Shown here piece by piece: positions 11,948-57,609 of a stretch of DNA of 64,000 nt. This stretch comes from a virus. How positions within the stretch are numbered: position 1 is the stretch's first letter; each line of letters starts with the position of its first letter. Both the position numbers and the translations under genes were made by a program. The stretch spans positions 2,081 through 66,080 of the IMG/VR virus record IMGVR_UViG_3300009826_000003. One strand, 5' to 3'. The notes beneath the pieces were generated by a model. It searched no databases and was not told the origin of the DNA. It saw nothing but the letters and a program-made list of their open reading frames with translations.

Positions 11948-13534
11948 ATGACGCGAAGAATTTTGCCATTTGACAGGAATATCGTTCCTCAAGAAACAGG
12001 CTTTTGGTGCGGTCCAGCTTCCGCGCAAATTGTATTGAATTCGCGCGGAATCCACGTTCCAGAAAGCGAATTGGCGCGTGAAATAGGCACACATACCGGA
12101 GGTACGGATCACGTCGGACTCATCGTACAACGCACATTAAATAGGAGATTGCCGGAAGCACAATATCAAGTTGTGCAAATGCCAAATGATCCGCCAACGC
12201 CAACACAACAAAGCGCATTGTTTTCGAATATAACCCGAAGTATTGATGCCGGTTACGGTTTGGTGGTAAATTGGTGGGCACCTCCGAACAATTACCCGCG
12301 CGGAATTCTTGGTTCACCTTCCCCGAATTACGGTCGAATTGGTGGCCTGGTAAAACATTATGTAACCTATATGGGTTACGATTCAGGAGACATCAAAGGT
12401 GTATTTGTTGTTGATCCTGGCTTTGCTCCATTTGAGGGATTTTTCGTCAGCGCACATCAAGCCGGGACGCTCATACCTCCTATGGGATACGCATTTAGTG
12501 CTGCTGCGAAACCTGCTGTGACACAAGGGAATCCGCTTGAAATCCTTATTTCTGCAATGCGGAATGGTGTTAGCCGCGAACGTTATTCCGCGCTTTTGCC
12601 TAGTGTGCAAGAGGCATTAGTGAGATGTCATTGTGATAATCCAAATCGAATAAGTTCGTGGATGGCTCAGGTTGGCCATGAGAGTAACGGTTTATTGTGG
12701 TTTAGAGAATTATGGGGGCCAACGCCAGACCAATTAACATATGAGGGAAGAAAGGAATTGGGAAATACCATTCCTGGTGATGGTAGACGCTTTTTAGGTC
12801 GCGGTCCCATACAATTGACGGGAAGGGGCCACTACCAACGCCTTTCAGATTGGGCGTATGACCAAAAATTAGTACCAGCTAGGAATTTCTTTACCGACAA
12901 TCCAGAACAATTGGAATCTGATAAATACGGATTTCTAGGTGTAATTTGGTACTGGACTGTAGCTAGACCAACCATTAACACTATGAGCGATCATAAGGAT
13001 TTAGAAGGAGTTACGCGCGCAATTAATGGTGGTCTCAATGGATTAACTGACCGGCGGAATCGCTGGAATCACTGTCTGTCCCTTGGTGATTCGATCATGG
13101 GAATTTTACCGAAAGAGACCATTACCGTCACGCCTCCGAAAGAGCCTGCGCCAGAAGAGATTTCAGATGAGAAGCAACAAGTATCTGTTGCTGAATTGCT
13201 AAATGACGTAAGGGATTTGAAGCGCGCACTATTGGAAAAGGTACCTTCGCAATCCAGATACCGGCATGATAACGAAGACCTTTGGACGACAATAGAATTC
13301 ATTCGAAATGCTGATGCGATGATCCATGAAGAGTACGCGGAAAGGCTTGCGCTGCTTGGGGAACCGTGGTACGTCCAGCGAATAACAAGAAATGCACGGA
13401 GAGGAGACCGAATTGCCTATTCTGTTTTCGAGCGGATTGACTCAAAAGTGTTGCGGGAGTTGGGGATTAGTGCTTCCCAAGTCGAAAAGGAATTCAACGA
13501 AGCCGGAAAATACGAAACAGAGTATAAGGATTAG
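11948..13534 (+). CDS. lysA: Endolysin (lysin A): peptidase C39-like + glycoside hydrolase 19 + C-terminal domain
   Basis: QETGFWCGPAS...HY (C39-like); AQVGHES, GRGPIQLTG, VTRAINGG.NGL.DR (GH19). Start moved to ATG 11948. Confidence 0.9.
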   Translation: MTRRILPFDRNIVPQETGFWCGPASAQIVLNSRGIHVPESELAREIGTHTGGTDHVGLIVQRTLNRRLPEAQYQVVQMPNDPPTPTQQSALFSNITRSIDAGYGLVVNWWAPPNNYPRGILGSPSPNYGRIGGLVKHYVTYMGYDSGDIKGVFVVDPGFAPFEGFFVSAHQAGTLIPPMGYAFSAAAKPAVTQGNPLEILISAMRNGVSRERYSALLPSVQEALVRCHCDNPNRISSWMAQVGHESNGLLWFRELWGPTPDQLTYEGRKELGNTIPGDGRRFLGRGPIQLTGRGHYQRLSDWAYDQKLVPARNFFTDNPEQLESDKYGFLGVIWYWTVARPTINTMSDHKDLEGVTRAINGGLNGLTDRRNRWNHCLSLGDSIMGILPKETITVTPPKEPAPEEISDEKQQVSVAELLNDVRDLKRALLEKVPSQSRYRHDNEDLWTTIEFIRNADAMIHEEYAERLALLGEPWYVQRITRNARRGDRIAYSVFERIDSKVLRELGISASQVEKEFNEAGKYETEYKD

Positions 13535-14298: not shown

Positions 14299-14866
14299 TC
14301 CAACTATTAGGCAACAAACGGTAATTCGTGGACGCTCTGGTCCTACCGGCCCAATTGGTGTGCCATTGGAAAATCCACTTTCTGAATTAGAAATGAATGA
14401 GGATGTCGCGCTATATGTCGGAATGCTGGAAGGGCAATTAGCAGCGTATGCAATTAATGAGGTCAAATATCGCACGCTATTGGAAATGCTGACCGGCAAA
14501 CCGTGGGACGCGACTATGGTTGATGTTGACTCAAATGTGTTGGTAGACATCGCATCTCAGGCTTTAATCAGGCGCGGAATGGATGGTGTAGAAGCCAGAA
14601 CAACTGTAATGCGCAGATTCCAACGCGCGGATAATTCGCCCACACAACCTCCGGCAATGCCGGTCAATATCCCAACGCATGTACCGCTGGAAGAGCGTTA
14701 TCGTGAATGGCAGAATCGCAGGCGCGGAAGACTTCCCATGTCTAATGCACCAGGACCGGAATATGTCAATCCTGTTGGCGCGCAACGGTTTTCAGCACCA
14801 GAGCCGGAACCTGTTGTGCCACAAGAGGATTCGCCAGAGCCAGAGGAAAAGCGGACCAAATCTTAG
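14291..14866 (+). CDS. Hypothetical protein, last gene of rightward operon
   Basis: 191-aa ORF overlapping the previous stop. Confidence 0.7.
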   Translation: MTDPTIRQQTVIRGRSGPTGPIGVPLENPLSELEMNEDVALYVGMLEGQLAAYAINEVKYRTLLEMLTGKPWDATMVDVDSNVLVDIASQALIRRGMDGVEARTTVMRRFQRADNSPTQPPAMPVNIPTHVPLEERYREWQNRRRGRLPMSNAPGPEYVNPVGAQRFSAPEPEPVVPQEDSPEPEEKRTKS

Positions 14867-14881
14867 GTTCGCAAGAGGGAC

Positions 14882-14946
14882 AAAAAAAAGCGCGCCAGGC
14901 GAAATCATCTCCGGGGAAACGAAATCGCTTGGCGCGCTTGGTTTTT
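14882..14946. terminator. Bidirectional intrinsic terminator
   Basis: A8 tract, AAGCGCGCCAGGCGA/TCGCTTGGCGCGCTT stem, then GGTTTTT; lies between convergent operons. Confidence 0.8.
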
Positions 14947-15142
14947 AGTGATTGTCGCAAATCCACTCTCTGCATTCTAGGAGCGTTCTGCCTGTGTATT
15001 CGATGATACCGAAATAGACCACGCGCCAAGCGATTTCGCCATTATGACGAATTCGGATAACGTCGCAACCTTCTACCATCCAGTGACCAGGCTTGACGCA
15101 TCTTTGCTCCAAACCTGCTAAGCCATAAGACTTTTCACTCAT
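14945..15142 (-). CDS. Small hypothetical protein (array gene)
   Basis: 65 aa, start directly after repeat RBS. Confidence 0.75.
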   Translation of the reverse strand: MSEKSYGLAGLEQRCVKPGHWMVEGCDVIRIRHNGEIAWRVVYFGIIEYTGRTLLECREWICDNH

Positions 15143-15218
15143 TCACTTTCCACCCTCTTCCTGTCCTAGTTGGACAACACCAAACAGGTTGTGCGCCAAC
15201 CTGTTTGATGCAATGCAA

Positions 15219-15452
15219 CTAGCCTCGCGCGTTACGCTCAGCTATAGCGCGATCTAGGCACGCTCCGTAATCACCTGGCACTCCGCACCAGTGACAAGGT
15301 GCTGGTTGTGCTAAGCGCTCCGCCTCCGTGCGAAGCTGATTAGCGGTCCAACTGCAATTGCCAGGGAAGGGATAACCGTATTCCTTTCCTAGCTCTTCCA
15401 GCAGGATAGCGGCCTGAATCATACGCTCTGGCAAGGCTTTTCGGTTACTCAT
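15219..15452 (-). CDS. Small hypothetical protein (array gene)
   Basis: 77 aa with C-terminal CxxC; TAG stop is the CTAG of repeat 1. Confidence 0.75.
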   Translation of the reverse strand: MSNRKALPERMIQAAILLEELGKEYGYPFPGNCSWTANQLRTEAERLAQPAPCHWCGVPGDYGACLDRAIAERNARG

Positions 15453-15454
15453 GG

Positions 15455-15706
15455 TTAAACTCCCTTCGAGTAATACCGAATGTTGGTGTGCTCAAACAAT
15501 TGTCGCAAGCCTAACTCCGAAAGTTCAAGAGTTAGAACAAGATTCGCGAACAGGTAGTCTTTGTCATAAAAGACATAAGACGTGTGAATGTCACACTTGG
15601 CCCTATTCACCAGATCGCGATTGATCCACTGAATCATCAACCCTTTGTTGGCATTCCGCGTGAACGGTGGAATGTCTTTAGGGTCAACCCTTTTCACTGT
15701 ATCCAT
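15455..15706 (-). CDS. Small hypothetical protein (array gene)
   Basis: 83 aa, start after repeat 2 RBS. Confidence 0.75.
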   Translation of the reverse strand: MDTVKRVDPKDIPPFTRNANKGLMIQWINRDLVNRAKCDIHTSYVFYDKDYLFANLVLTLELSELGLRQLFEHTNIRYYSKGV

Positions 15707-15780
15707 GATTCCATCCTCTCTTTCTGTCCCTAGTGGACAACGCCAAACCTGTTGGCTAGCAACAGGTTTGACGCAATCAA

Positions 15781-16065
15781 CTAGCGAACCGCATTCGCAG
15801 CTTTGAATTCGACTGCGTTGTTTGCGATTTCGTTTGCCTTCTGGTGTAAGTCATCCGGCAAACGTTGGCCCATCCGACCAAGCGCGGAAACTGCGAGGTC
15901 AATTGCACCTCTTAGCTTCCATCCAGACTGGCGAACTATGGCCTGTGGAGCGTAACTAGGCCGGTAATGAACCATGTTGTTACTGACACGATTGGCCAGC
16001 GCATTCAGTTCTGCCACAATAACTTTCGCGGCCTGCTCTTCGAATCCTTCTGGAATGTATACCAT
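15781..16065 (-). CDS. Small hypothetical protein (array gene)
   Basis: 94 aa, bounded exactly by repeats 2 and 3. Confidence 0.8.
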   Translation of the reverse strand: MVYIPEGFEEQAAKVIVAELNALANRVSNNMVHYRPSYAPQAIVRQSGWKLRGAIDLAVSALGRMGQRLPDDLHQKANEIANNAVEFKAANAVR

Positions 16066-16139
16066 TTTTCCATCCTCTTTTCTTGTCCTTAGCGGACAAC
16101 ACCAAACCCCTTGACTAGCAAGGGGTTTGATGCACTCAG

Positions 16140-16343
16140 CTAAGAACTAGCTTCACCTTCGGGCGAAACGCCAACGTACAGAGTCCTTTTCAGTGGTCCC
16201 TGTCCGCTGTGGTCGATTCCTCCGACCCAACCGGCAACCCAACCTTTCGGAAGGTCGAATGCCAAGTTGTAATCGCTTTCGCGAAATGCGACTTTGTAAC
16301 TGGCACAAAGCTTTTGGAGCGTTTCACGCTGTTTCGGATTCAT
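16140..16343 (-). CDS. Small hypothetical protein (array gene)
   Basis: MNPKQRETLQ..., 67 aa; GGAGG RBS and ATGA overlap; stop in repeat 3. Confidence 0.75.
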   Translation of the reverse strand: MNPKQRETLQKLCASYKVAFRESDYNLAFDLPKGWVAGWVGGIDHSGQGPLKRTLYVGVSPEGEASS

Positions 16344-16543
16344 ACCGATTTCACCTCCGCCTGTCCCAAACCACAAGCGCGCAAGAACCTTTCGCGGTCA
16401 AAGCGCGGATTGTCTGATTTGAATTTAGCGGCCAGTTGGTTAGCGATTGCTTCAATGGCTTTATTTGAGTCACTGAATTTCAAATCGCTTGCCAGCTTTA
16501 TGATTTGAGCAATTTGCTCGAAATCCCTTCTGGTAACTGCCAT
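16340..16543 (-). CDS. Small hypothetical protein (array gene)
   Basis: MAVTRRDFEQIA...DNPRFDRERFLRACG, 67 aa, after repeat 4 RBS. Confidence 0.8.
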   Translation of the reverse strand: MAVTRRDFEQIAQIIKLASDLKFSDSNKAIEAIANQLAAKFKSDNPRFDRERFLRACGLGQAEVKSV

Positions 16544-16632
16544 TTCAATCCATCCTCTCTTTCTGTCCCTAGTGGACAAGACGAAAACCCTTGCGAAACA
16601 AGGGTTTTCATCCAATCAACTAGTGATTTGTG

Positions 16633-16881
16633 TTAGCGGCAATCGTCCCGCAAAACAGGGTTGACATCAGGGACAAGTGACACAACGATTTTCGTTTCGA
16701 CGCGAAAACCTTTGGCCTTCACCTGTTCTAGATGATGAACCGCATTGCGCAAGTGTAATGCACTGGCGCGCTGGCGATCTCGAACATGAGTGAATCCTTC
16801 ACTCTCTGCCCTGTCCGCTTCGCAATCCAAAGCAACCGACAAATCGGTTGCGTTGATGTCGAATGCATATTGAACACTCAT
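16633..16881 (-). CDS. Small hypothetical protein (array gene)
   Basis: MSVQYAFD..., 82 aa, after repeat 5 RBS. Confidence 0.75.
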   Translation of the reverse strand: MSVQYAFDINATDLSVALDCEADRAESEGFTHVRDRQRASALHLRNAVHHLEQVKAKGFRVETKIVVSLVPDVNPVLRDDCR

Positions 16882-16954
16882 TTTTCCATCCTCTTTTCTT
16901 GTCCTAACGGACAACACGAAAAGCGTTCTGTATGAACGCTTTTCGTGCACTCCG

Positions 16955-17383
16955 TTAGGGAGTTAGTGCGCGATACCGACCCATTGCGACCCTACGCGCG
17001 TAACCCAATTTGATTAGCGTGTAGCATCTTTGGCCAGCAGCACTAGATGAAATATTCAAATGGCGTCCTAGTGCGTTAAGGTGAACGCCCACCTCGCAAT
17101 CATTCTCCGCGAGGTATTCCCAAGCGTCATACTGTGACCTGTTAAGCGCTCCATCGTGCGGAGTATGCACACCAGGCCGCGTACCCTTCGAAATGGGTTG
17201 TAACGCTTGCGGTTTCGGGTCATCCACTTCTAGCGTCACTCTCTGCCTACCCTGAAAAGGGTTGGCCTGTAACGCTATACGCTGCTCAGACTGTAACGCG
17301 CGGATAAAATCCAGCGCAGCTTGAGCTTCACCATTCGAAATATCAAGTGTCACGTCACCTTTGGCGTTGACGGTAACCTTCAA
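16955..17383 (-). CDS. Putative DNA-binding protein with C-terminal winged HTH
   Basis: LNRSQYDAWEYL...LGRHLNISSSAAGQRCYTLIKLGYARR; TTG start after GAAAGGGATGGAATA. Confidence 0.65.
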   Translation of the reverse strand: MKVTVNAKGDVTLDISNGEAQAALDFIRALQSEQRIALQANPFQGRQRVTLEVDDPKPQALQPISKGTRPGVHTPHDGALNRSQYDAWEYLAENDCEVGVHLNALGRHLNISSSAAGQRCYTLIKLGYARRVAMGRYRALTP

Positions 17384-17534
17384 TATTCCATCCCTTTCTA
17401 TCTGAAATCTGACCATCAGCATTGATGGCCTGTCCTAGCGGACAAGACCAAACCCCTTGACTAGCAAGGGGTTTGATCCAGAGCGCTAGGCTCTTACCCT
17501 GTCGATTCCTCAAATCGACTGTAGGAGAACAACT

Positions 17535-18677
17535 TTAGGACTTGGCCGCTACTAGCTCAGGCCGGTCTAGAACCTTCGCCAGTGCAATCACGCTCTTTTG
17601 GTCAACCTCTCCAAACTGACCGCGAATTGCCTTATCCAAGTTACGCTCCACACGATTACCCTTTACCGTCCGGTAGTGAGTTTCGTATGTGTTGAGCGCT
17701 TGCACTACACCTAGAGCAGTACCACGCCATTGTGCCGACATTGGATCACGATGGTAAGTGTGGTTAAGCACTTCCCTTTTGTTTTCCGCAATCGACATTT
17801 TGCGCTTGGTTGTCTCTGGGTCTTTAGCGTCGGGCATAGGGAAGATTTCATTCATCACCTTTACCCATTGCTGCGTAGTGACCGGAATAGATGCCAATTC
17901 GTGTAGCTCATCCATCATGGCATCGTTCGTCTGGTGAATGATCCTTAGCGCTTGCCGCACGTCTTTAATCCTGTTGTAATCCAAGGACTTTGACGTGTGA
18001 CGTGCCTTGTAAATTCGACCTGACGATTCCGCCTGGTGAAGCGCTGCGTTTCTGGTGTTATCGCAAACAACGTAAAGCGTTTGACCGCTGAAAGTTGTTG
18101 GGATAGAACCATCTAACGAAGTGCTTCCCATGATGTATGGCCAGAATTCCGCGCCTGTGGTCTCATCGTGCGAAGTCTCCGGTAAGGCTACTTGCACGAA
18201 AGCTTGAGCACCATTGCGAAGCAAACCAGCGCCAAGGATGGTCAGAGTATCGCCAATTACGTTGGCCTGCAATTGCATTAGCCATCTTTCGTAATTGTGA
18301 ATGCGGTACTCATCGCTGTGGTGGCCTAGCTCAAGGTGGTTGTCACTTCTAACAACACCTTGCATGTCAGGTACCACAACGATTTTGACCGGCTGACCTT
18401 GCTTGAAGTCTTCACCTCCAAGCGAAAGGTCTTGTGGCAGAAAGAAATTCGCATCCTTTCGTTCACAAGGCACCAGGTTTGCCGTAGGAACGGACATTGG
18501 CGTCCAAGGGAACAGACGCTCTTTAACCGTTTTGTAGGGTATTGGCCCTTCAAAGTGGTTGGACGGCAACCCAAGCCGCTCGCGCAGCTCTGGGTTATCG
18601 TGCCATGCCTTCGGTCGATTCGCGCAGTTCCCAACCAAGATAAACTCATTGAGCCACCTTGAGGTTTCCTGTGACAT
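17535..18677 (-). CDS. DUF932 / TIGR03299-like phage-plasmid protein
   Basis: VVRSD...Y.IHNY, AGLLRNGAQAFVQV, STSLDGS...VVCDNT...HT pattern. Start moved to ATG 18677. Confidence 0.7.
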   Translation of the reverse strand: MSQETSRWLNEFILVGNCANRPKAWHDNPELRERLGLPSNHFEGPIPYKTVKERLFPWTPMSVPTANLVPCERKDANFFLPQDLSLGGEDFKQGQPVKIVVVPDMQGVVRSDNHLELGHHSDEYRIHNYERWLMQLQANVIGDTLTILGAGLLRNGAQAFVQVALPETSHDETTGAEFWPYIMGSTSLDGSIPTTFSGQTLYVVCDNTRNAALHQAESSGRIYKARHTSKSLDYNRIKDVRQALRIIHQTNDAMMDELHELASIPVTTQQWVKVMNEIFPMPDAKDPETTKRKMSIAENKREVLNHTYHRDPMSAQWRGTALGVVQALNTYETHYRTVKGNRVERNLDKAIRGQFGEVDQKSVIALAKVLDRPELVAAKS

Positions 18678-18754
18678 ATCGTTATTCTCCAATCTATCTG
18701 TGCGCCAATGGAATTGGCGACTTTTCACGCGAACCGTGTAAGTGGCCGCGCTAG

Positions 18755-18930
18755 TGGCTGTAGCCAGATTCGAACTGGCCCAAGGCTTTTCGGCTCTTGT
18801 TCCTAATCCGCTCTTATTTGGCTTCTAAGCCTTCGGAGCGTCTGTCAGGTACTAAGACCCTTGGACGCTCCGAAAACGGCTCAGAAGCGCTCTCAGGCCG
18901 GTCTAATGGCCTGTTTGGAGCGGTACAGCC
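18755..18930 (-). ncRNA. 176-nt tRNA-like RNA with large structured insertion
   Basis: Acceptor GGCTGTA/TACAGCC, T-arm GCCAG-TTCGAAT-CTGGC, nested internal helices; fills the intergenic gap. Confidence 0.8.
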
Positions 18931-18939
18931 AGCAGCAGG

Positions 18940-19428
18940 TTACTGCTGCATGTTGAGATGACCTTTGGCAAGACGGAGAAGCGAATTGTATTCATCCCGC
19001 TTCTCTTTGGGAACTTCAATGTAGTTACCCATACCAACCACGAAACGCCAAAGACCTTCCAGCACAACAACTTTCTCTCTAGCTTTCATTTTCGGATAGC
19101 TAGGTGAACGGTTGTATGAACGTCGCGCGAAGCGCTCCGTTTCTTTGGCTTCCGCTATCACCAGGTCAATCAGTTGCCTTCTGCTGTAGGACTTTTCGAG
19201 TCCCTTAGCAATGTGGTTGTCCCACAAGGCTTTCCATGCTTCGATGTCATCGCTGTTCCAGAAAGAGCGATTCTGAAACTCGAATTTCGCAGGGGGAGTA
19301 ACGATTTCGTCGTTTTTCCGCCACGAATCAATGATGACGGCATCTGCGCCGATTGCGCGCGAGATGTCATAAATCGAAAGCATGACAACTTCCTTACCTG
19401 TTGACAGGTCAGTGATTTTCTCTGCCAT
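18940..19428 (-). CDS. Hypothetical protein, possible N-terminal HTH (array gene)
   Basis: 162 aa, LSIYDISRAIGADAVIIDSWR; start after repeat 7 RBS. Confidence 0.7.
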   Translation of the reverse strand: MAEKITDLSTGKEVVMLSIYDISRAIGADAVIIDSWRKNDEIVTPPAKFEFQNRSFWNSDDIEAWKALWDNHIAKGLEKSYSRRQLIDLVIAEAKETERFARRSYNRSPSYPKMKAREKVVVLEGLWRFVVGMGNYIEVPKEKRDEYNSLLRLAKGHLNMQQ

Positions 19429-19512
19429 GTTTCCATCCCTTTCTGTCCCTAGATCGTTCGTCTAGCGGACAACACCAAAAGCGTTAGCCTGTAACGCTTT
19501 TGATGCAATCAG

Positions 19513-19692
19513 CTAGCTCACAAGCTGCTCAGCAGCTTCTATGGCTTGCTTCTTATTGGCGTAAGAGCCATTCATCAACTGGTGGCCCTTCCAGATACGC
19601 CAGAACTTTTTAGGCGATTGCATAACGTGGATGTCGTGCTTATCGTCATGCATTCCGCCCCAATGGTTTTCACGCCAAACGATGTTACTCAT
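19513..19692 (-). CDS. 59-aa protein missed by ORF track
   Basis: MSNIVWRENHWGG...AIEAAEQLVS; ATGA overlap; stop is the CTAG of repeat 7. Confidence 0.75.
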   Translation of the reverse strand: MSNIVWRENHWGGMHDDKHDIHVMQSPKKFWRIWKGHQLMNGSYANKKQAIEAAEQLVS

Positions 19693-19895
19693 TTTTGCGA
19701 TCCTTCCTCTTGTATCTGCTCCAAGAGACCGCGCAGGCGCGAATTCTCTTCTTGCAGAGCGGAAATGGATTCAGCACGTTCTTTCGCCCAAACGTGTTGC
19801 ATCACTTCCATTTCGTCTGGGTCGCTTGGGTCGAAATCAACACCAGGTACCCAACCGTCACCTTGGACATATTGCCCATCTTCCAGATACGGCAT
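19689..19895 (-). CDS. Small acidic hypothetical protein (array gene)
   Basis: MPYLEDGQ..., 68 aa, after repeat 8 RBS. Confidence 0.75.
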   Translation of the reverse strand: MPYLEDGQYVQGDGWVPGVDFDPSDPDEMEVMQHVWAKERAESISALQEENSRLRGLLEQIQEEGSQK

Positions 19896-19968
19896 TTTTC
19901 CATCCTCTCTTTCTGTCCTAGCGGACAAGGCCAGATACGTTGGCGCGCAACGTATCTCGCCCAATGCG

Positions 19969-20202
19969 CTAGACCGGGAGAAGGTCTTGGTATTCGTTAT
20001 GGTTCAATTCACCAAAAACGAAGCGCTGCATGGCTTTTGCAACGTCTATAGGCTTTCCGCCCATTGGAACGTCGCGACCATGCCCAAGCTCCCAACCATA
20101 ACCAGGCTGTTTGTACCAGATTTGGACGCGACCCTGACTCTCTAGGTGCATCACCTGGTAACGCCAACCTTCGGCATTCTTGAATTCAAGAAGTAGCCTC
20201 AT
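19969..20202 (-). CDS. Small hypothetical protein (array gene)
   Basis: MRLLLEFK..., 77 aa; RBS GAAGGGGATGGAAACC; stop in repeat 8. Confidence 0.75.
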   Translation of the reverse strand: MRLLLEFKNAEGWRYQVMHLESQGRVQIWYKQPGYGWELGHGRDVPMGGKPIDVAKAMQRFVFGELNHNEYQDLLPV

Positions 20203-20294
20203 GGTTTCCATCCCCTTCCAGTGATCCAATTTGAATCACCAACTAGGCCAAGGGATTTCGGTTGTGTAAGCTCGAAATCCCTTGGCAACATTGG

Positions 20295-20453
20295 TTATTC
20301 AACATCATCTTGATGCAGAAGGCGAATATCGTTGCTGTAGACCTTGATTGCTGGAAATTGTCCATTGTCGCCAGCATCCCAAAGAGCAATGTATTCGATA
20401 CCGTCGAACTTGATACGGTCACCTTCACGCACTTTCATTGCAAGTGCCATCAT
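20295..20453 (-). CDS. Small hypothetical protein (array gene)
   Basis: MMALAMKVREGDRI..., 52 aa, after repeat 9 RBS. Confidence 0.7.
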   Translation of the reverse strand: MMALAMKVREGDRIKFDGIEYIALWDAGDNGQFPAIKVYSNDIRLLHQDDVE

Positions 20454-20526
20454 GTTTTCCACCCTCTTTCTTGTCCTAGCGGACAACGCGAAACCCTAAC
20501 GCAGAGTTAGGGTTTCACGCAATCAG

Positions 20527-20760
20527 CTAGAAATCGTTTCTAGCGCAGGCGATTTCGTAACCTTCCATGTCTCCGATTTCGTCATCGTAGACAGAAGGGT
20601 TATCGCGCCAGTTGTCGCGCAACCGCTGACCAAAAGCGTTGTATTGCGCGTTGCACTCAGGGCAGGAAACGTCACCCTGACCACGGTACCGGGAAACTAT
20701 TGCGCCGCAAGCGCATTCCCATTCCGAATGTCCATCATCGAACCTCTTGACGTTGGCCAT
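20527..20760 (-). CDS. Small zinc-ribbon protein (array gene)
   Basis: CACG...CPECNAQYNAFGQRLR, 77 aa, bounded exactly by repeats 9 and 10. Confidence 0.8.
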   Translation of the reverse strand: MANVKRFDDGHSEWECACGAIVSRYRGQGDVSCPECNAQYNAFGQRLRDNWRDNPSVYDDEIGDMEGYEIACARNDF

Positions 20761-20840
20761 TTTTCCATCCTCTCTTTCTGTCCTAGCGGACAACCCCAAA
20801 CCCCTTCTCGCGGAAGGGGTTTCGGGCAATGCGCTAGGCA

Positions 20841-21437
20841 TTACGCGGCAACGAAGGCATCGCCAACCTGCGCCAGATGAATTTGCTTGTTAGCTTCCAT
20901 CTGGAATTCGCGCAGGCGACCCTTGCCGACGTGCGCCAGGCGCATAGGGATAAGAGCAATTCCCTTGAGCACCTTGGCATTCCGCCGCGCTTCGAAAAGT
21001 TCGTTGTCAATCACCATGAGGTCACCGGCAACAACGTTCTTAGCTGCTTTCCGAAGGTTCATTTTTCCATCTCCTTTTGGTTGGTGGTTGCGACGTTGTG
21101 CCACAACCTTTTTCGGCTCAGCCTTCTTAGGCTGTTCCTTTGGCTCTTCCTTCTCTAGACCCTTGACGCATGGGAAAATGTCTACGTCAGAACCGTATTG
21201 CTTGCGTCCTTCCTCATCGCTCAAATCCCAATCGCTGTAGTGATCGCTGTAAATAGCGTCCACAATTTCATCAGCGTTTTTGGCATCCAAGATCCAAGGT
21301 GCTCCGCAGGCGCGATCTTCAAGCACTGCCCAATGGTATTTGGGTTGCTTGATGTCTCGACAGTCTGGCGCGTGGACGTGCATTGCGCCGCGACCGAAGT
21401 TGATTCCGTTGGGGCCAAGTATCCGAACCTTAACCAT
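20841..21437 (-). CDS. Hypothetical two-domain protein with internal in-frame start
   Basis: MVKVRILG..., 198 aa; internal GGAGATGGAAAA-ATG at 21062. Confidence 0.75.
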   Translation of the reverse strand: MVKVRILGPNGINFGRGAMHVHAPDCRDIKQPKYHWAVLEDRACGAPWILDAKNADEIVDAIYSDHYSDWDLSDEEGRKQYGSDVDIFPCVKGLEKEEPKEQPKKAEPKKVVAQRRNHQPKGDGKMNLRKAAKNVVAGDLMVIDNELFEARRNAKVLKGIALIPMRLAHVGKGRLREFQMEANKQIHLAQVGDAFVAA

Positions 21438-21564
21438 TTTTCCATCCCCTATCTTGTCCACTGTCTAGCGGACAACGCCAGAAGCGTTGATTACCAACGC
21501 TTCTCGCGCAATCAGCTAGCTTCGAATCATCACCAGGCCAGCGTAACCAAGGCCGCGATTCTCA

Positions 21565-21663
21565 TTAATCGTCATGGCACCTGCACAGGCACCACTCATG
21601 CGTGCAGTTCTCATGCCCGTTCAATTCACAGACACGCTGGTCAAACTCCCGTTGTTCGTTCAT
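21565..21663 (-). CDS. 32-aa Cys/His-rich peptide
   Basis: MNEQREFDQRVCELNGHENCTHEWCLCRCHDD, directly after repeat 12 RBS. Confidence 0.55.
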   Translation of the reverse strand: MNEQREFDQRVCELNGHENCTHEWCLCRCHDD

Positions 21664-21739
21664 TTTTCCATCCCCTATCTTGTCTGCTGTTCTAGCGGAC
21701 AACGCCGAAATCGTTACCGTGGTAACGATTTCCGCGCAA

Positions 21740-21985
21740 TCAGCTAAACATTTCCTTCTCTAGTTGGAACCTGTCATCTTCGGCTTGCTGCGCCAGCGCC
21801 AATCGGAGTACCGATTTCCAGTTAGCGATTCTTGCTGCCTCTTGCATGTAAGAGCCGCAACCGTGACCGTGCATTTTCTCCGAAAGTGCTTCCAGCACAA
21901 GCATTTTGCTTACCCTCTGTTCGTTCTTTCGAGCGTTAACAGCGATAAAGTTTGCCATGACCTTAGCAGCTTCCATCTTTTTCAT
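21740..21985 (-). CDS. Small hypothetical protein (first array gene)
   Basis: 81 aa, RBS GGGGATGGAAAA; TGA stop inside repeat 12. Confidence 0.75.
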   Translation of the reverse strand: MKKMEAAKVMANFIAVNARKNEQRVSKMLVLEALSEKMHGHGCGSYMQEAARIANWKSVLRLALAQQAEDDRFQLEKEMFS

Positions 21986-22040: not shown

Positions 22041-22119
22041 GAGCCAAGGCCGGAATCGAACCGGCACAGGTAGGGCGATCATCTTCGCGGTACCTGCTTT
22101 CATCAGCGGCCACCAGGCT
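22041..22119 (-). ncRNA. 79-nt tRNA-like RNA with aberrant D and anticodon arms
   Basis: Acceptor AGCCTGG/CTTGGCT (one mismatch), T-arm GCCGG-TTCGATT-CCGGC, central helix CAGGTA/TACCTG. Confidence 0.65.
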
Positions 22120-22522
22120 AGCTCATGTCTAAGGGCGAATCTCATTGCGCCATCAAGCTTTTCAGTTGCGCTCATTGCCTAGCTGGATTGACTAGTTTGT
22201 CAGAACAACTGAAAAGCCAGAAGGCGCAACGGATTTCGCAATCCGTTGCACCCTTTGAGGGATAGAATGGAAAATATTTTCATCTACTACCTAGGGTCCG
22301 TTTCCGCTTCGCCTCTTTCGTCATCTTGCAGCTAGTCCCTTCGCGCGCAACCGCTTTCATCAGGAAACTCCGAATAGTGTTGGCTAGCTCCGCATCTCGC
22401 GGACCTTCGGCTTTCGACTCTGTTCAGTTCTCAAATTTCACGCTGACCCTGGCTGGCGGGGGAAGTTCGTCGGTCCCGTTTGCGCGGGGGAGAGGTTCGC
22501 GCCTCTCCTAACTTCCAACTAC

Positions 22523-22552
22523 ACCGTATCACGTTTTTAGGCACCATGTCAA
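22523..22552 (-). promoter_or_regulatory. Sigma70/SigA-type leftward promoter for the array
   Basis: TTGACA-N18-TACGGT on the minus strand. Confidence 0.6.
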
Positions 22553-34745: not shown

Positions 34746-35335
34746 GTAAGGGTCACTCGAAGCGCTCCGCGCGGAAGGGTCGCGGCCAGAAGGCCAGGGC
34801 CACAACGAAAGTCGCTCAGCGTGGCTCTGAGGGCCAGCAAGCGACCACTCCGCGTGGAGATGAGCAGGTCAGGAAGGGGGCAGAGGTCGCGAAATCGCCT
34901 GTGGCAGAAGAGCTTTCGCCAGAGGACCAGGCCGCAGCGACTCAGCGCATGGCGGAGGTCTTCAAAGCGCTTGCTTCCGCGCCTGAAGGCTTTTTGCCTA
35001 TGCTGGAAAGATTAGAGGTCAATTATCAGATTGTTCCGCTTTCCGCTGAAAGCGCGCAGACTGTTCTATTCGAAGTCTCTGAAAGTGACTCTGACTCAAT
35101 GTATTTGGTGGTCAAGATGACTGACCTAATAGAAGGCGAAGAGCGAAATCAAAAACAAGGTTCGCTGCTGGATCGCTTGTCTGTCGAGAAACCTGGTGAT
35201 AAGGTAGCTAAATTGGCAAAACGGTTGTCTGGCTTCGGAATTCGGTCGGATGTTTTTGGACTGAATGCCGACAATCTGCCAAAACCTGTATGGGACAAGA
35301 TAATTGGAGAGGATCAAAAAGAAGGTGACTGCTAA
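34742..35335 (+). CDS. Hypothetical protein
   Basis: 197 aa, GTGA overlap. Confidence 0.7.
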   Translation: MSKGHSKRSARKGRGQKARATTKVAQRGSEGQQATTPRGDEQVRKGAEVAKSPVAEELSPEDQAAATQRMAEVFKALASAPEGFLPMLERLEVNYQIVPLSAESAQTVLFEVSESDSDSMYLVVKMTDLIEGEERNQKQGSLLDRLSVEKPGDKVAKLAKRLSGFGIRSDVFGLNADNLPKPVWDKIIGEDQKEGDC

Positions 35336-35702
35336 TCCAAATCCGCACAATACTTTACGGAGGGTGCGTGGATCAGCTAGTCTTTACCGTTGTGTAGACT
35401 GCGGAAAGCAAGCGCGGGATTGGTCGCATACTCATAAAACAGACCCAGATGATATAGACAATTATCATCCACGTTGCGCTATTTGTCATAAACAATACGA
35501 TAAAGAATCGTATTGGGAGAATGAAGAGTATAGAAAGAAACAATTGGCAATGCCGCAACGTCAAAGCTCTTTATCTGAAGATCAAAAAGAGCAATTGGTG
35601 ACATTGTATGCTACAGGTAAGTACACGCAAAAACAATTGGCAGAAAGGTTTGGAGTATGTCAGAAAACGATCTCTATTTGGACAAGAAAAGGGAAAAGAT
35701 AA
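35325..35702 (+). CDS. HNH endonuclease-like protein with C-terminal HTH
   Basis: RCVDCG...WSH...NYHPRCAICHKQYD; YTQKQLAERFGVCQKTIS. Confidence 0.75.
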   Translation: MTANPNPHNTLRRVRGSASLYRCVDCGKQARDWSHTHKTDPDDIDNYHPRCAICHKQYDKESYWENEEYRKKQLAMPQRQSSLSEDQKEQLVTLYATGKYTQKQLAERFGVCQKTISIWTRKGKR

Positions 35703-35976: not shown

Positions 35977-36300
35977 ATGGATGACACGCTTATTCCTGTC
36001 TTCAGACATGCTGGCCAGCAGGACAAAAGGATGTTACGGCATTCTCACGGCTCGAAAGATATTGGCGCACAAGGGAAGTCGATTATCGAAAAGCTCCAAG
36101 ACGATATGGATAGGCAACGAAAGAAGCTGGAAGCCATCGTAACTAAGTATGGTAAAGATGTTCCTATTGAAATAGCATTTCAATTTGAGAGACAACGCGG
36201 AAGGTATGAAGGGATCGCAGCATCTTTAGCTAGAATGCGGAATTCGTCTGTGGCAGAAGAGATTTCGCGGAGTGATGAAAGGTTGGGAATTGAACAATGA
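35977..36300 (+). CDS. Hypothetical protein
   Basis: 107 aa, coiled-coil. Confidence 0.65.
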   Translation: MDDTLIPVFRHAGQQDKRMLRHSHGSKDIGAQGKSIIEKLQDDMDRQRKKLEAIVTKYGKDVPIEIAFQFERQRGRYEGIAASLARMRNSSVAEEISRSDERLGIEQ

Positions 36301-41832: not shown

Positions 41833-42227
41833 ACGGTTACACTTTTGAAAGTGTAACCGTTTTGGTTAGGGAAAGCCGTTGTGGGAGAGGGGATTACGGA
41901 ATGAGGTGGAATAGAGGTACGGTTACACTTTTTTGGAGTGTAACCGGGGGCGAAATGGCCTGTTACAGAAGTGAATTCGGGGAGGGAGTGTAACCGGAGT
42001 TTGGGCAGGTCGGATAGGTTAAATGGTGGTAAGGTTACAGTTACACTTTAAGTTGAATAGATATGAAGGAAAAGTAGTTAGCTATGCTAATAAAAAATGG
42101 TGCGGGGGTATTGCGTTTTATAAAAAAGAACTGGACCCAAAGTGTAACCGTAACCGCTTGTCCAGCAAACACTTTCGGACCTGCGAAAATGCTTGCGGCG
42201 CGACGCATTTCGCCTGGTTACACTTTT
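41833..42227. repeat. Cluster of GGTTACACT/AGTGTAACC iteron-like repeats (candidate origin)
   Basis: Inverted pairs 41833-41860 and 41920-41946; further copies at about 41987, 42033, 42139, 42216. Confidence 0.8.
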
Positions 42228-42298: not shown

Positions 42299-42443
42299 GA
42301 AATATGTTGTGTAACAACATCTTTCGATTAGAGACCGAAAAGCGTTGTGCGACAACGCTTTTCGCCAAATTGAGCGCAGCGCAAAACAACGAAAGTTGTT
42401 GTGCGCGAAGCGAATTGAAAAGCCTTGCAACGCAAGGGTTTTC
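42299..42443. repeat. Three 11-bp/5-nt-loop dyads
   Basis: 42299-42325, 42337-42363 (perfect) and 42417-42443; same geometry as the array hairpin cores. Confidence 0.8.
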
Positions 42444-49387: not shown

Positions 49388-49391
49388 TGAA

Positions 49392-49730
49392 ATGGCGTGG
49401 ACAGATGCCGCAAGATTAGCCAGCGCCGCCGCGCGAAGGGCGAAAAAAGGCACTGGTATTGGTTCTATGAGCTTTAATCCAAACAAGCATCTTAGAACAC
49501 CAAAGGGGAGAATAAGCAAAACGGGAAAGGCGGCATTAAAGAAGCAATATATAAAACAGGGTGGCAGCAATACATTACGCGGAGGGTTAGGGAAGGCAAA
49601 TAAAAAGAAAAGCGCCGCTTCAGATTCCGCAAAGAATTTGAATAAAACCAAAAAGGCTTATATAAGGCCAACACATACAAGCGGAAAAAGAGTAAAGGGT
49701 GCCACTGGTAGATCAATTAGGATGAGATAG
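49392..49730 (+). CDS. Basic MAWTDAAR-family protein
   Basis: MAWTDAARLASAAARRAK; Lys/Arg-rich; start moved to ATG 49392. Confidence 0.85.
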   Translation: MAWTDAARLASAAARRAKKGTGIGSMSFNPNKHLRTPKGRISKTGKAALKKQYIKQGGSNTLRGGLGKANKKKSAASDSAKNLNKTKKAYIRPTHTSGKRVKGATGRSIRMR

Positions 49731-50696: not shown

Positions 50697-50724
50697 AAAC
50701 TGTTGCTAGAGAAGGGATTTCATC

Positions 50725-51165
50725 ATGGCTTGGACTGATGCGGCTAGGATCGCAAGCGCTGCTGCTAGACGTGCAAAGGGTAAAACTGGACTTCGAAAAG
50801 GAGGAGCTAATCTTAGTCATCGTGGATCAAAAAAGACTTTTCCAACCGCCACAACTGGATATGCAAAATTGAAATCGAATAAGCCAGCAGCATATGGAGT
50901 TAGAGTAAGTGCTAGAACAGGTCAGGGATACCGAAAGGTTGGGAACGCTGTTGGTGTAAAGGCGCCATTTTCTGCCGGTGGAGTTGTAAAGGGTAAAGGA
51001 AAAACTGGATGGAAAAAGCCTAGTCAAATGGGTGCTCCATTAATTAGGACAAAAAACAAGGTGAAAATGAATAAAACTTTTGATTCTCCAAAAGCAATGG
51101 AAAGGGCAAGAAAAGCCAATAAAGGTGCAATGCTTCGGCGCAGGGCAAAACGTCGCAAGGGATAA
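50725..51165 (+). CDS. Basic MAWTDAAR-family protein
   Basis: MAWTDAARIASAAARRAK; Lys/Arg/Gly-rich. Confidence 0.85.
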   Translation: MAWTDAARIASAAARRAKGKTGLRKGGANLSHRGSKKTFPTATTGYAKLKSNKPAAYGVRVSARTGQGYRKVGNAVGVKAPFSAGGVVKGKGKTGWKKPSQMGAPLIRTKNKVKMNKTFDSPKAMERARKANKGAMLRRRAKRRKG

Positions 51166-56509: not shown

Positions 56510-56863
56510 ATGGCTAGGGTTATTCCGCTAGACAAACCGCTTTCTGACGAAGACGAAAAGTACCTTCGATCCAGAGGCCGCTTTGCCGACATAGAAAGAA
56601 ATAGGAAAAAGTTCGCAGATGCGAAATCATCGAAATCACAACAGGATTCAAAGAAGGCAGAAGAGAAGCCAGCGCCGAAACCTGAAGGAGCGCAAAAATT
56701 CTCACTAGACCAAGACATCTTCGAAAAGGTCAAAGCATTTACACATGAAGATTTGAATGTGGAATTTGCAAAGGCCGGTCTAGACGCTCCCTCTACCGTT
56801 CGCGAAATGAGAGTTGTTCTGGCACAACATCTTCAGAATGAACGGAATAAGGGGAGTGGATAA
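56510..56863 (+). CDS. Hypothetical head-region protein
   Basis: MARVIPLDKPLSDED... Confidence 0.7.
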   Translation: MARVIPLDKPLSDEDEKYLRSRGRFADIERNRKKFADAKSSKSQQDSKKAEEKPAPKPEGAQKFSLDQDIFEKVKAFTHEDLNVEFAKAGLDAPSTVREMRVVLAQHLQNERNKGSG

Positions 56864-57187
56864 ATGGCTTGGACAGATGCCGCGCGCGCTGCGTCTGCTG
56901 CTGCCAGACGTGCGAAAGCTACTGGTGGCAAACGGCGTTCGACAGGTAAAAGGCGTTCAAAAACACGAAACAAAATGCTTAAACGGAAGCGACCTACTTC
57001 TGGCATTACAATTCCAAAAGGGAAAAATCAACGCAGGCAACGCGGAAGAGCCTTCAAAAAAGTAGGCAGAGGTCAAGCCGGAAGAATGCGTGGATTTGGA
57101 CAAAAGAAAAGCCGCAAAACCAAAAAGCAATCAGAGGTTTATAAAGCTAAGAGAAGGTCACCATTAAAGTATAGAAAGAAACGATAA
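56864..57187 (+). CDS. Basic MAWTDAAR-family protein (protamine-like)
   Basis: 107 aa, extremely Arg/Lys-rich. Confidence 0.85.
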   Translation: MAWTDAARAASAAARRAKATGGKRRSTGKRRSKTRNKMLKRKRPTSGITIPKGKNQRRQRGRAFKKVGRGQAGRMRGFGQKKSRKTKKQSEVYKAKRRSPLKYRKKR

Positions 57188-57609
57188 TGGCGTGGACAGA
57201 TGCAGCTAGAGCCGCCTCCGCAGCAGCACGTCGCGCGAAAGCTACTGGTAGGAAAAGGAATAACCCAAGCTGGCCTAAGAAAAGACGTTCGACAGGTAAA
57301 AAGCGATCAAAACCTAGAAATACACCAGCGGCTAGACGTGGTGAATCAGCTAGGCGAAAGGCTAGCCGTGTCCGTAAAAAGGAAACGTTATCTAGCTCAA
57401 AACGTCAGCGCGGCAGGGGAGTTCGGAGGTCAGGACGTGGTGCTGGTCAGAAACAAGCGGATTATAGGCGTGGAAGTAAAACGCGCGCAGGTAAAAAGGC
57501 TAGTCTAAAAAGAGGGTTAAAAGCAAAGGCAAATCGAAAGAGGTATGCGAGGTCAACAGCAAAGAAATTTAGTAAGGGGAGTTGGGCTAAAAGAGGAAAG
57601 AAACGATAA
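57187..57609 (+). CDS. Basic MAWTDAAR-family protein (protamine-like)
   Basis: 140 aa tandem paralogue; TAATG overlaps. Confidence 0.85.
   Translation: MAWTDAARAASAAARRAKATGRKRNNPSWPKKRRSTGKKRSKPRNTPAARRGESARRKASRVRKKETLSSSKRQRGRGVRRSGRGAGQKQADYRRGSKTRAGKKASLKRGLKAKANRKRYARSTAKKFSKGSWAKRGKKR

Follow-up and report, generated by a model that had tools for sequence, protein, structure and literature searches.

We analyzed a window of 64,000 bp (bases 2081–66080 of the 71,237-bp virus record IMGVR_UViG_3300009826_000003, which has direct terminal repeats), in which a leftward operon of small genes carries a repeated hairpin element at its gene junctions. The sequence, with a GC content of 45–53%, belongs to an actinophage of the siphovirus type and encodes a tape measure protein, minor tail proteins, a LysA-like endolysin, DnaE-type polymerase domains, a primase and a terminase. 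Nearly the whole sequence is contained in four termite-gut metagenome runs, and approximately 40% of the sampled words in two further runs. The operon comprises approximately 19 small genes, from position 22175 down to 14945, and is flanked by the lysis genes and the replication genes, both of which run rightward. A Pfam family could be assigned to one array gene only (DUF932, 380 amino acids, 17535–18677 on the minus strand). All positions are window coordinates unless a relative is named, and the elements of the array lie on the minus strand.

A sequence-only reading of the window had described twelve hairpin elements in this operon, at almost every gene boundary. The core [GC]TTGTCC with its flanks is present in 12 minus-strand copies, all of them between 15143 and 21747; elsewhere it does not occur in that context (Table 1). 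A covariance model built from these copies and searched against the whole genome recovered exactly the same 12 and no others, at 69.6–100 bits; on the plus strand the same loci scored only 20–36 bits. Nineteen perfect hairpins with a stem of at least 9 bp occur in the genome, 12 of which are the junction elements, and of the six occurrences of the leader word AGGATGGAA in the window, five fall within the array. The number of elements and their strand were thereby confirmed, but their spread had been overstated, as the element occupies 12 of the 18 array junctions. At three of the remaining six the genes overlap or abut, one holds a 176-nt tRNA-like RNA, one has a different hairpin pair, and one does not exist as such because two cassettes are fused in frame. 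A 198-amino-acid open reading frame (ORF) at 20841–21437 (minus strand) has an in-frame internal start at 21062 that is preceded by the array leader (GGAGATGGAAAA-ATG), and looks like two cassettes fused on loss of the intervening hairpin.

Table 1. Junction elements and other features of the leftward operon (window coordinates; RBS, ribosome-binding site).
Feature	Position	Strand	Core	Remarks
Copy 1	21661..21748	-	21703	alternative hairpin with enlarged loop, leader, ATG; upstream stop is the TGA of CTGATTG
Copy 2	21435..21521	-	21476	alternative hairpin extended to 9 bp, energy near that of the long helix; upstream stop 45 nt away
Copy 3	20758..20839	-	20794	stop TAA 3 nt ahead of the helix base
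Copy 4	20451..20532	-	20487	stop TAG within CTAGC arm; RBS GGGTGG
Copy 5	19893..19974	-	19929	arm contains stop TAG
Copy 6	19426..19518	-	19473	insertion with second CTAG; alternative hairpin lengthened to ~10 bp
Copy 7	17381..17491	-	17446	additional 8-bp hairpin between alternative hairpin and RBS; start TTG
Copy 8	16879..16960	-	16915	outer stem CTAAC/GTTAG, embedded stop TAA; inner stem 14 bp
Copy 9	16541..16625	-	16580	outer stem CTAGT/ACTAG; stop 11 nt upstream
Copy 10	16063..16145	-	16100	outer stem CTTAGC/GCTAAG containing stop TAG
Copy 11	15704..15786	-	15741	outer stem CTAGT/ACTAG containing stop TAG
Copy 12	15140..15223	-	15178	one base inserted per arm (compensated indel), register kept; RBS GGGTGG
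Variant junction	20203..20294	-		different 13-bp hairpin and small second hairpin, then same RBS type
tRNA-like RNA, 176 nt	18755..18930	-		junction before DUF932; 7-bp acceptor GGCTGTA/TACAGCC, canonical T-arm GCCAG-TTCGAAT-CTGGC
Second tRNA-like RNA of the array	22041..22119	-		
Candidate SigA-type promoter, leftward	22523..22552	-		TTGACA, 18 nt, TGn-TACGGT; predicted from the sequence
Intrinsic terminator	14881..14942	-		long GC-rich hairpin then T8, 3' of last array gene

Paired outward from the loop without gaps, each copy forms one helix of 25–26 positions. The inner stem is perfect over 10–14 bp, variable in sequence between the copies, and closes a loop of 5 nt (4 nt in copy 1). Positions 1–11 of the helix make up this perfect stem, and positions 12–14 are a U·G or C-G pair followed by two covarying Watson-Crick pairs. 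Positions 15–20 form a fixed, non-Watson-Crick core in which 5'-UGAUUG lies opposite 5'-UUGUCC (G·U, U/U, U·G, A-U, G-C, U/C); the G-C pair and the mismatch trade places in four copies. The outer stem at positions 21–25 reads CTAGC/GCTAG, CTAGT/ACTAG, CTAAC/GTTAG or CTTAG/CTAAG. The arms are approximately 14 nt long, TTGTCC is invariant, and both the U/U and the U/C (or C/C) mismatch are conserved in all 12 copies.

The pairing covaries. In a MAFFT alignment of the 12 window copies 88.5% of the cells are paired, against 71.8% in shuffles, and none of 500 shuffles reached the observed value; 14 pairs have changed on both sides, and slid controls gave 36–48%. In minimum-energy folding the full helix is obtained for 10 of the 12 copies, with z-scores of -3.6 to -7.1. 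We extended the comparison to 29 copies from four phages, namely the window and the relatives L020, L021 and L024, which were retrieved through DUF932 homologues. In an independent MAFFT alignment of these copies, fitted to no model, 89.8% of the cells are paired (72.1% in shuffles) and 19 of 23 pairs change on both sides; an alignment fitted to the model gave 96.3% against 73.1%. Of the 144 cells of the five outer pairs, 143 are paired, and each of these pairs occurs in two or three types. New versions of the outer stem in the relatives are CTAAT/ATTAG, CTGGT/ACCAG, CTTAT/ATAAG and CCAAT/ATTGG; as CTGGT, CTTAT and CCAAT lack any stop codon, the outer stem is selected as a stem.

Within the helix approximately 28 cells are wobbles (G·U or U·G at three positions) and none is A·C; the fold is therefore confined to the mRNA sense. 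What the junctions carry is an imperfect hairpin that covaries, is strand-specific and is selected as mRNA structure. The anatomy given by the sequence-only reading (arm, inner stem, loop, invariant TTGTCC) agrees with these results, as do its further claims: inner stems that differ yet stay complementary, compensating outer arms, a U/U mismatch in every copy aligned, G-U pairs that form on the minus strand only, and an imperfect hairpin of approximately 25 bp selected as mRNA structure. No Rfam family matched in the window at the gathering score, and permissive settings yielded only sub-threshold matches to generic microRNA hairpins.

A second fold involves the 3' arm. For the window alignment, RNAalifold prefers the inner 15 bp together with a small hairpin, UGUCC-loop-GGACA. 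When the 5' arm was barred from pairing, mimicking a ribosome, all 12 window copies folded into the inner hairpin and UUGUCC/GGACAA, and across the four phages this alternative was obtained in 27 of the 29 copies. With the 5' arm free, the long helix is more stable by 4–13.5 kcal/mol. The distance between UUGUCC and its GGACA half varies by copy (4, 5, 10 or 18 nt), and in copies 2 and 6 compensating insertions lengthen the small hairpin. In L020 and L021 the sequence of the small hairpin has changed on both strands, for instance GUCUGCUAA with UUAGCAGAC and UGUAUCUU with AAGAUACA, and its downstream strand repeats the 5' arm. The module has two mutually exclusive folds, of which the second is kept and covaries in the relatives.

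The core is fixed and weak because UUGUCC has to pair imperfectly with UGAUUG and perfectly with GGACAA. A single strand with two conserved partners, in which the half-sites change in concert, argues against a DNA site for a dimeric protein. The Shine-Dalgarno sequence and the start codon are covered by neither fold. In L024 (L024:9140–14560) each module has a third small hairpin after the alternative hairpin, covarying and of the type ACGTC-N4-GACGT, the loop of which copies that of the preceding hairpin.

The stop codon of the upstream gene lies within the 5' arm in 8 of the 12 copies, six times as TAG, once as TAA and once as the TGA of CTGATTG, and 3–45 nt upstream in the other four; in the four phages together it is found in the helix base or at most 11 nt from it in approximately 24 of 29 copies. 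The 5' arm offers TAG and TGA in two frames. The RBS is GGATGG in ten copies and GGGTGG in two, and the start codon is ATG in 11 copies and TTG in one, so that the shared RBS and ATG start described earlier apply to most copies but not to all. A promoter scan of the array returned two promoter-like sites (6.9 expected), none of them at an element; no sigma-70-like promoter was found at the elements and no TANNNT hexamer was seen in their conserved part. In a terminator scan copies 7 and 10 were terminator-like and the other ten failed. The elements are neither promoters nor classical terminators. The terminator behind the last array gene ends in T8, indicating that the phage does use U-tract terminators, which the junction elements lack.

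The nearest full genome among the relatives is L020, a contig of 71.5 kb with six elements and a DUF932 protein 70% identical to that of the window. L021 (62%) has three or four elements and L024 (56%) has eight, and four more small metagenome contigs contain true copies (52–63 bits). Elements of the relatives match those of the window at 72–88% nucleotide identity. Closer relatives were sought by megablast against phage records, by a search of viral contigs with the DUF932 peptide and by a leader-specific pattern, all without a match; contigs from the four termite-gut metagenome runs break at the repeats and contain no variant joints.

The Mycobacterium phages MrMiyagi and Cuke (GC 48–49%) have the same kind of array, with nearly the same leader (ACAGAAAAGGATGGAA followed by ATG) and an inner hairpin of the window type (GAAA-N4-TTG, loop, CAA-N4-TTTC). 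In these two phages and in L021 a minimal tRNA-like element precedes the hairpin, in place of the outer arms. It consists of a covarying acceptor stem of 6–7 bp, a linker of 10–11 nt (often AACGGTTTTCG), and a canonical T-arm with a GGTTCGATTCC-type loop, followed by CACG. Such elements occupy approximately 12 junctions per phage (MrMiyagi L007:2345–10013, Cuke L009:2294–11246 and L021:8804–11393), and L021 mixes both module types in one array. RNAalifold on the raw MAFFT alignment gave the T-stem only; the acceptor stems came from a direct search. The elements of the three phages are not annotated in the records and are not called by Rfam. They look like a phage version of tRNA punctuation. 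In the window, the 176-nt tRNA-like RNA sits in the slot that is elsewhere filled by a junction element, and neither this RNA nor the second one of the array is called by ARAGORN or Rfam. All relatives examined have a long, structured gap ahead of DUF932.

Around the conserved modules the genes turn over. Homologues in MrMiyagi, Cuke or PegLeg were found for 5 of the 19 array proteins, in a different order, and L020, L021, L023 and L024 each share with the window DUF932 and only 0–3 other array genes. Copies 9 and 10 enclose an overlapping gene pair that is found downstream of DUF932 in the window; in L024 the two genes, still as a pair, are located upstream of it. Gene order and content thus differ between the relatives, and identical order was not seen. 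The swapping of gene cassettes at the repeats, put forward by the sequence-only reading, is in line with this turnover and with the moved pair, but at this divergence no exact joint can be mapped. From these comparisons the conserved modules are likely to act as joints of gene exchange, as a by-product.

DUF932 is the sole array gene common to all relatives, and its homologues form 119 clusters, from 79% down to approximately 32% identity. The best relatives from isolates are those of the Mycobacterium phages MrMiyagi and Fowlmouth (59%) and Cuke (57%), followed by Indlulamithi, cluster R and cluster M. The protein has no sequence match in the PDB. An AlphaFold model is confident (pLDDT 88.6), but Foldseek returned nothing below E 0.008 and VIA-align a Z of 5.7 at most, hence no convincing PDB neighbor, and these structure comparisons gave no hint of a role in RNA.

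Several other features were recorded in the window. Between the candidate promoter and the first array gene lies a 15-bp hairpin with a T-rich tail (22221–22254, minus strand), which is possibly an attenuator, or else marks where a leader RNA of approximately 270 nt ends. An A-run at 21662/21663, just before the ATG of a 32-amino-acid ORF, has one extra A in all four metagenome runs compared with the window. A motif of approximately 29–35 nt (GAAA..CTGTGCCACAAG..TTTCGCCAGAG type) has at least 13 plus-strand occurrences at 69–90% identity, including 347–375, 13138–13166, 14806–14841, 34891–34926, 36240–36268 and 41952–41980; it lies mostly within or at the ends of rightward genes, and is similar to the template of the inner hairpin without folding itself. 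Three perfect hairpins are found on the plus strand in the gap behind the primase gene (41833–41860, 41920–41946 and 42336–42364), two with the arm CGGTTACACT in common and the third of the GAAA..TTG..CAA..TTTC type seen in the array. Four head-region genes start with the same 55-nt stretch (ATGGCGTGGACAGATGC...), approximately 70% identical (49391–49445, 50724–50778, 56863–56917 and 57186–57240, plus strand).

With a probability of roughly 0.45, we favor the reading that the long helix is a signal for endonucleolytic processing and stability of the mRNA, tied to translation and a substrate of a host enzyme of the ribonuclease (RNase) III type. In this reading each element is a cis-acting junction module of the polycistronic mRNA that can adopt two folds. 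In the first, the 25–26-position helix carries or abuts the upstream stop in its 5' base and holds the fixed weak core in its center; in the second, only the inner hairpin remains, and the freed UUGUCC pairs perfectly with GGACA(A) just 5' of the Shine-Dalgarno sequence. By analogy with the T7 early region, the first fold would be cleaved at the internal loop, splitting the operon transcript into hairpin-protected single-gene mRNAs and leaving the shared inner hairpin at the end of an mRNA, a place in which hairpins are protective. If a ribosome terminated on the 5' arm, the module would switch to the second fold, so that cleavage or downstream expression would be linked to upstream translation. 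The cleavage, the identity of the enzyme and the effect of the switch are inferred.

Three considerations favor processing, a role that the sequence-only reading had also proposed, and the support they give is indirect. The two-turn helix between cistrons, weak at a fixed internal spot, has the design of a T7 RNase III site, and the shared inner hairpin would come to lie at a protecting mRNA end. The strongest argument comes from the relatives, in which tRNA-like folds can stand in for the element in this slot. Such folds are endonuclease signals elsewhere: in plant mitochondria, tRNA-like elements (t-elements) are established signals for processing by RNase P/Z (PMC1920247). Other points weigh against it. 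A Pfam-type scan of 51 ORFs, comprising the non-structural region and the array genes, found no RNase III or other RNase domain (nor any RNA polymerase, integrase or resolvase domain), which makes the enzyme a guess. The lower stem is short (5–8 bp), and the two partners of UUGUCC fully explain the fixed core, which therefore need not be a recognition site for a nuclease or other protein. Furthermore, as neither fold hides the Shine-Dalgarno sequence, the purpose of a switch is not evident, and compact folding of the spacer would suit translational coupling equally well.

A stronger version of this reading, which we consider rather unlikely, would make every junction a ribosome-actuated switch from a cleavable helix to a protected form, metering the processing and expression of each small gene through translation of the gene before it, and functionally exchangeable with tRNA-like punctuation. 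Termination on the buried stop would then give the protected form, that is, the inner hairpin together with a 5' hairpin. Such a switch, with its tRNA-like interchange, would be a phage counterpart of mitochondrial tRNA punctuation, built from swappable parts.

Translational coupling without cleavage is the main rival to the processing reading, and in our view a doubtful one. Here the folded spacer would bring the stop codon near the next Shine-Dalgarno sequence: a terminating ribosome would melt the outer arm only, and the freed 3' arm would form the small hairpin and pull the RBS closer, so that a gap of 73–76 nt acts as a short gap. A ribosome covers roughly 14 nt downstream of its A site, about the length of the outer arm. 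The stop lies within the helix base in 8 of 12 window copies, and in or near it in most of the 29; blocking the arm produces the alternative hairpin in every window copy, and the modules of PegLeg likewise place a stop (the TGA in CTGAG) in the helix base. Coupling of this kind leaves several observations unaccounted for, however. The Shine-Dalgarno sequence and start codon are neither occluded nor exposed by either fold, the four window copies with a more distant stop still retain the full element, relatives have outer stems without a stop (CTGGT, CTTAT, CCAAT), and the tRNA-like sister modules keep a canonical T-loop that mere compaction does not need.

It is improbable that the elements act as weak intrinsic terminators, or as pausing sites by which expression would be graded along the operon, with the GC-rich inner hairpin followed by the U-rich UUUGGUGUUGU. 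A T-rich tract does follow the inner stem in all copies, and copies 7 and 10 pass the terminator scan; these are only 2 of 12, however, and in the long helix the tract is paired. Mycobacterial RNA polymerase has been reported to need a U-tract, and a canonical T8 terminator is used at the end of the operon. Termination would also leave the covariation of the outer stem and of the second hairpin unexplained.

A role chiefly as DNA recombination joints, through PeSL-like homology or as integron-like attC sites in single-stranded DNA and with no RNA function, appears quite improbable. The turnover of genes around conserved modules, the one-directional array of orphan small genes and the shape of the elements, imperfect palindromes with conserved mismatches, would all suit it. 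Yet no integrase domain or match was found among the 51 non-structural ORFs scanned, and the arms CTAGCTGATTG and GTTGTCCGCTAG do not match the attC core sites (RYYYAAC / GTTRRRY). As the elements have no promoter, they do not qualify as PeSLs either, and homology alone selects neither compensatory changes, nor mRNA-sense wobbles, nor a second covarying hairpin.

Finally, a DNA operator or stoperator, in which a phage regulator binds TGTCC-N4-GGACA at each junction and shuts the operon off, is very improbable: the dyad is conserved, and it is more frequent in the window than expected (44 matches with at most two mismatches, against 14), the phage encodes a small helix-turn-helix protein (35304–35702), and the stoperators of cluster A and the ESAS of cluster K offer precedents (PMC3203893), but half-sites spaced by 4, 5, 10 or 18 nt that change in concert in the relatives point to an RNA hairpin, as do the strand-specific wobble pairs. 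Separately, TGTCCGCTA fits the TGTCYNNTA half-site of gamma-delta resolvase; this candidate was dropped, since the 14-bp dyad is too short, the spacing varies and no resolvase was found among the 51 ORFs scanned.

The elements make up an RNA family absent from Rfam, with at least 29 members in at least four phages and further copies in four metagenome contigs. Small-gene arrays are a large unexplained share of actinophage genomes. The module offers a concrete, testable unit of three short strands whose pairing can be mutated and restored, and experiments in M. smegmatis are feasible because two kinds of cultivable phage are at hand: those of cluster M, with the same architecture, and Cuke and MrMiyagi, with the tRNA-like sister modules. 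Should the junctions prove to be processing signals or switches, the large fixed gaps between genes in several mycobacteriophage clusters would be accounted for, and ready-made insulator parts would become available for polycistronic expression in actinobacteria.

As analogues, the sequence-only reading had named the T7 RNase III hairpins and the start-associated sequences (SAS) of cluster K, the latter as a different motif. The cluster K motif is indeed different, the SAS being absent, but the closest published analogue is another, the stem-loops associated with CR3 and CR4 in cluster M mycobacteriophages. These intergenic stem-loops were reportedly described by Pope et al. in 2014 (J Virol 88:2461), and we know of no function shown so far for the cluster M junction modules. 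According to the account in a later paper citing that work, cluster M genomes have conserved repeats CR1–CR4 with stem-loops upstream of CR3 and CR4, and inserted genes bring a copy of CR3, a conserved intergenic repeat (PMC7953290). Like the window, cluster M has an array of small genes on one strand in which every junction combines a variable stem-loop with a second, smaller hairpin and a fixed leader whose RBS abuts the start, and both arrays include a DUF932 gene. The cluster M layout of a variable stem-loop and a conserved repeat abutting the start, within a small-gene array, is found in the window elements.

In PegLeg (cluster M), long imperfect helices with the stop in their 5' base are followed by a small second hairpin with the complement CTCAG in its loop and then by the fixed leader, and one copy has the same CGAUUGG / CUUGUCUGCUUAG core as the window elements. 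PegLeg differs in its leader, which is of the ACACACGGAGAAGGGA type, and in its GC content (61% vs. 47–50%), and the covariance model reached only E 0.55 in it; the leaders compared are those of PegLeg and the window, rather than the CR3/CR4 consensus. As far as the citing paper describes it, the kind is already known, as repeated stem-loop and leader junctions in mycobacteriophage small-gene arrays, and the shared architecture limits the novelty of the elements. We found no published description of the covariation of this family, of its strand with two partners or of the interchange with tRNA-like folds, the cluster M account being the one given in the citing paper.

Other known systems are further removed. 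Mitochondrial tRNA punctuation and t-elements (PMC1920247) are similar in that cistrons of MrMiyagi, Cuke and L021 are separated by a minimal tRNA-like fold; they differ in that the 12 window elements are plain hairpins, and processing by RNase P/Z in these phages would be an analogy. The PeSL cassettes of T4-type phages combine a strong sigma-70 promoter with a terminator stem-loop (Arbiol et al., 2010; PMC2839356). They too are repeated intergenic cassettes flanking orphan small genes, and recombination between PeSLs shuffles genes (PMC2839356), whereas the window elements have no promoter or U-tract. The SAS and ESAS of cluster K form a conserved motif that marks the RBS of non-structural genes where the intergenic gaps are large, and an inverted repeat precedes half of the SAS (Pope et al., 2011; PMC3203893). 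The authors of that study found no support for RNA pairing in the departures of the ESAS arms and favored DNA-binding proteins (PMC3203893), in contrast to the window elements, in which the pairing covaries. The 13-bp SAS GGGATAGGAGCCC has nine matches in the window with at most three mismatches (10.5 expected), none at an element.

The early transcript of T7 carries the RNase III sites R0.3, R0.5, R1, R1.1 and R1.3, and sites of this kind also occur in the early mRNA of Bacillus phage SP82. In T7 the hairpin stays at the 3' end of the upstream mRNA. The window elements resemble these sites in being imperfect hairpins between cistrons, approximately two helical turns long and with an internal loop, that recur from one early gene to the next, and the structure typical of such sites, an intercistronic imperfect hairpin of at least approximately 20 bp with an internal loop, is present in all 12 copies. 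They differ in having no sequence relation and no Rfam match, and their cleavage is a prediction; to our knowledge, no competing second fold or embedded stop codon is known for the T7 sites. The T7 R-sites, the PeSLs and the SAS/ESAS are relatives of the junction elements in concept.

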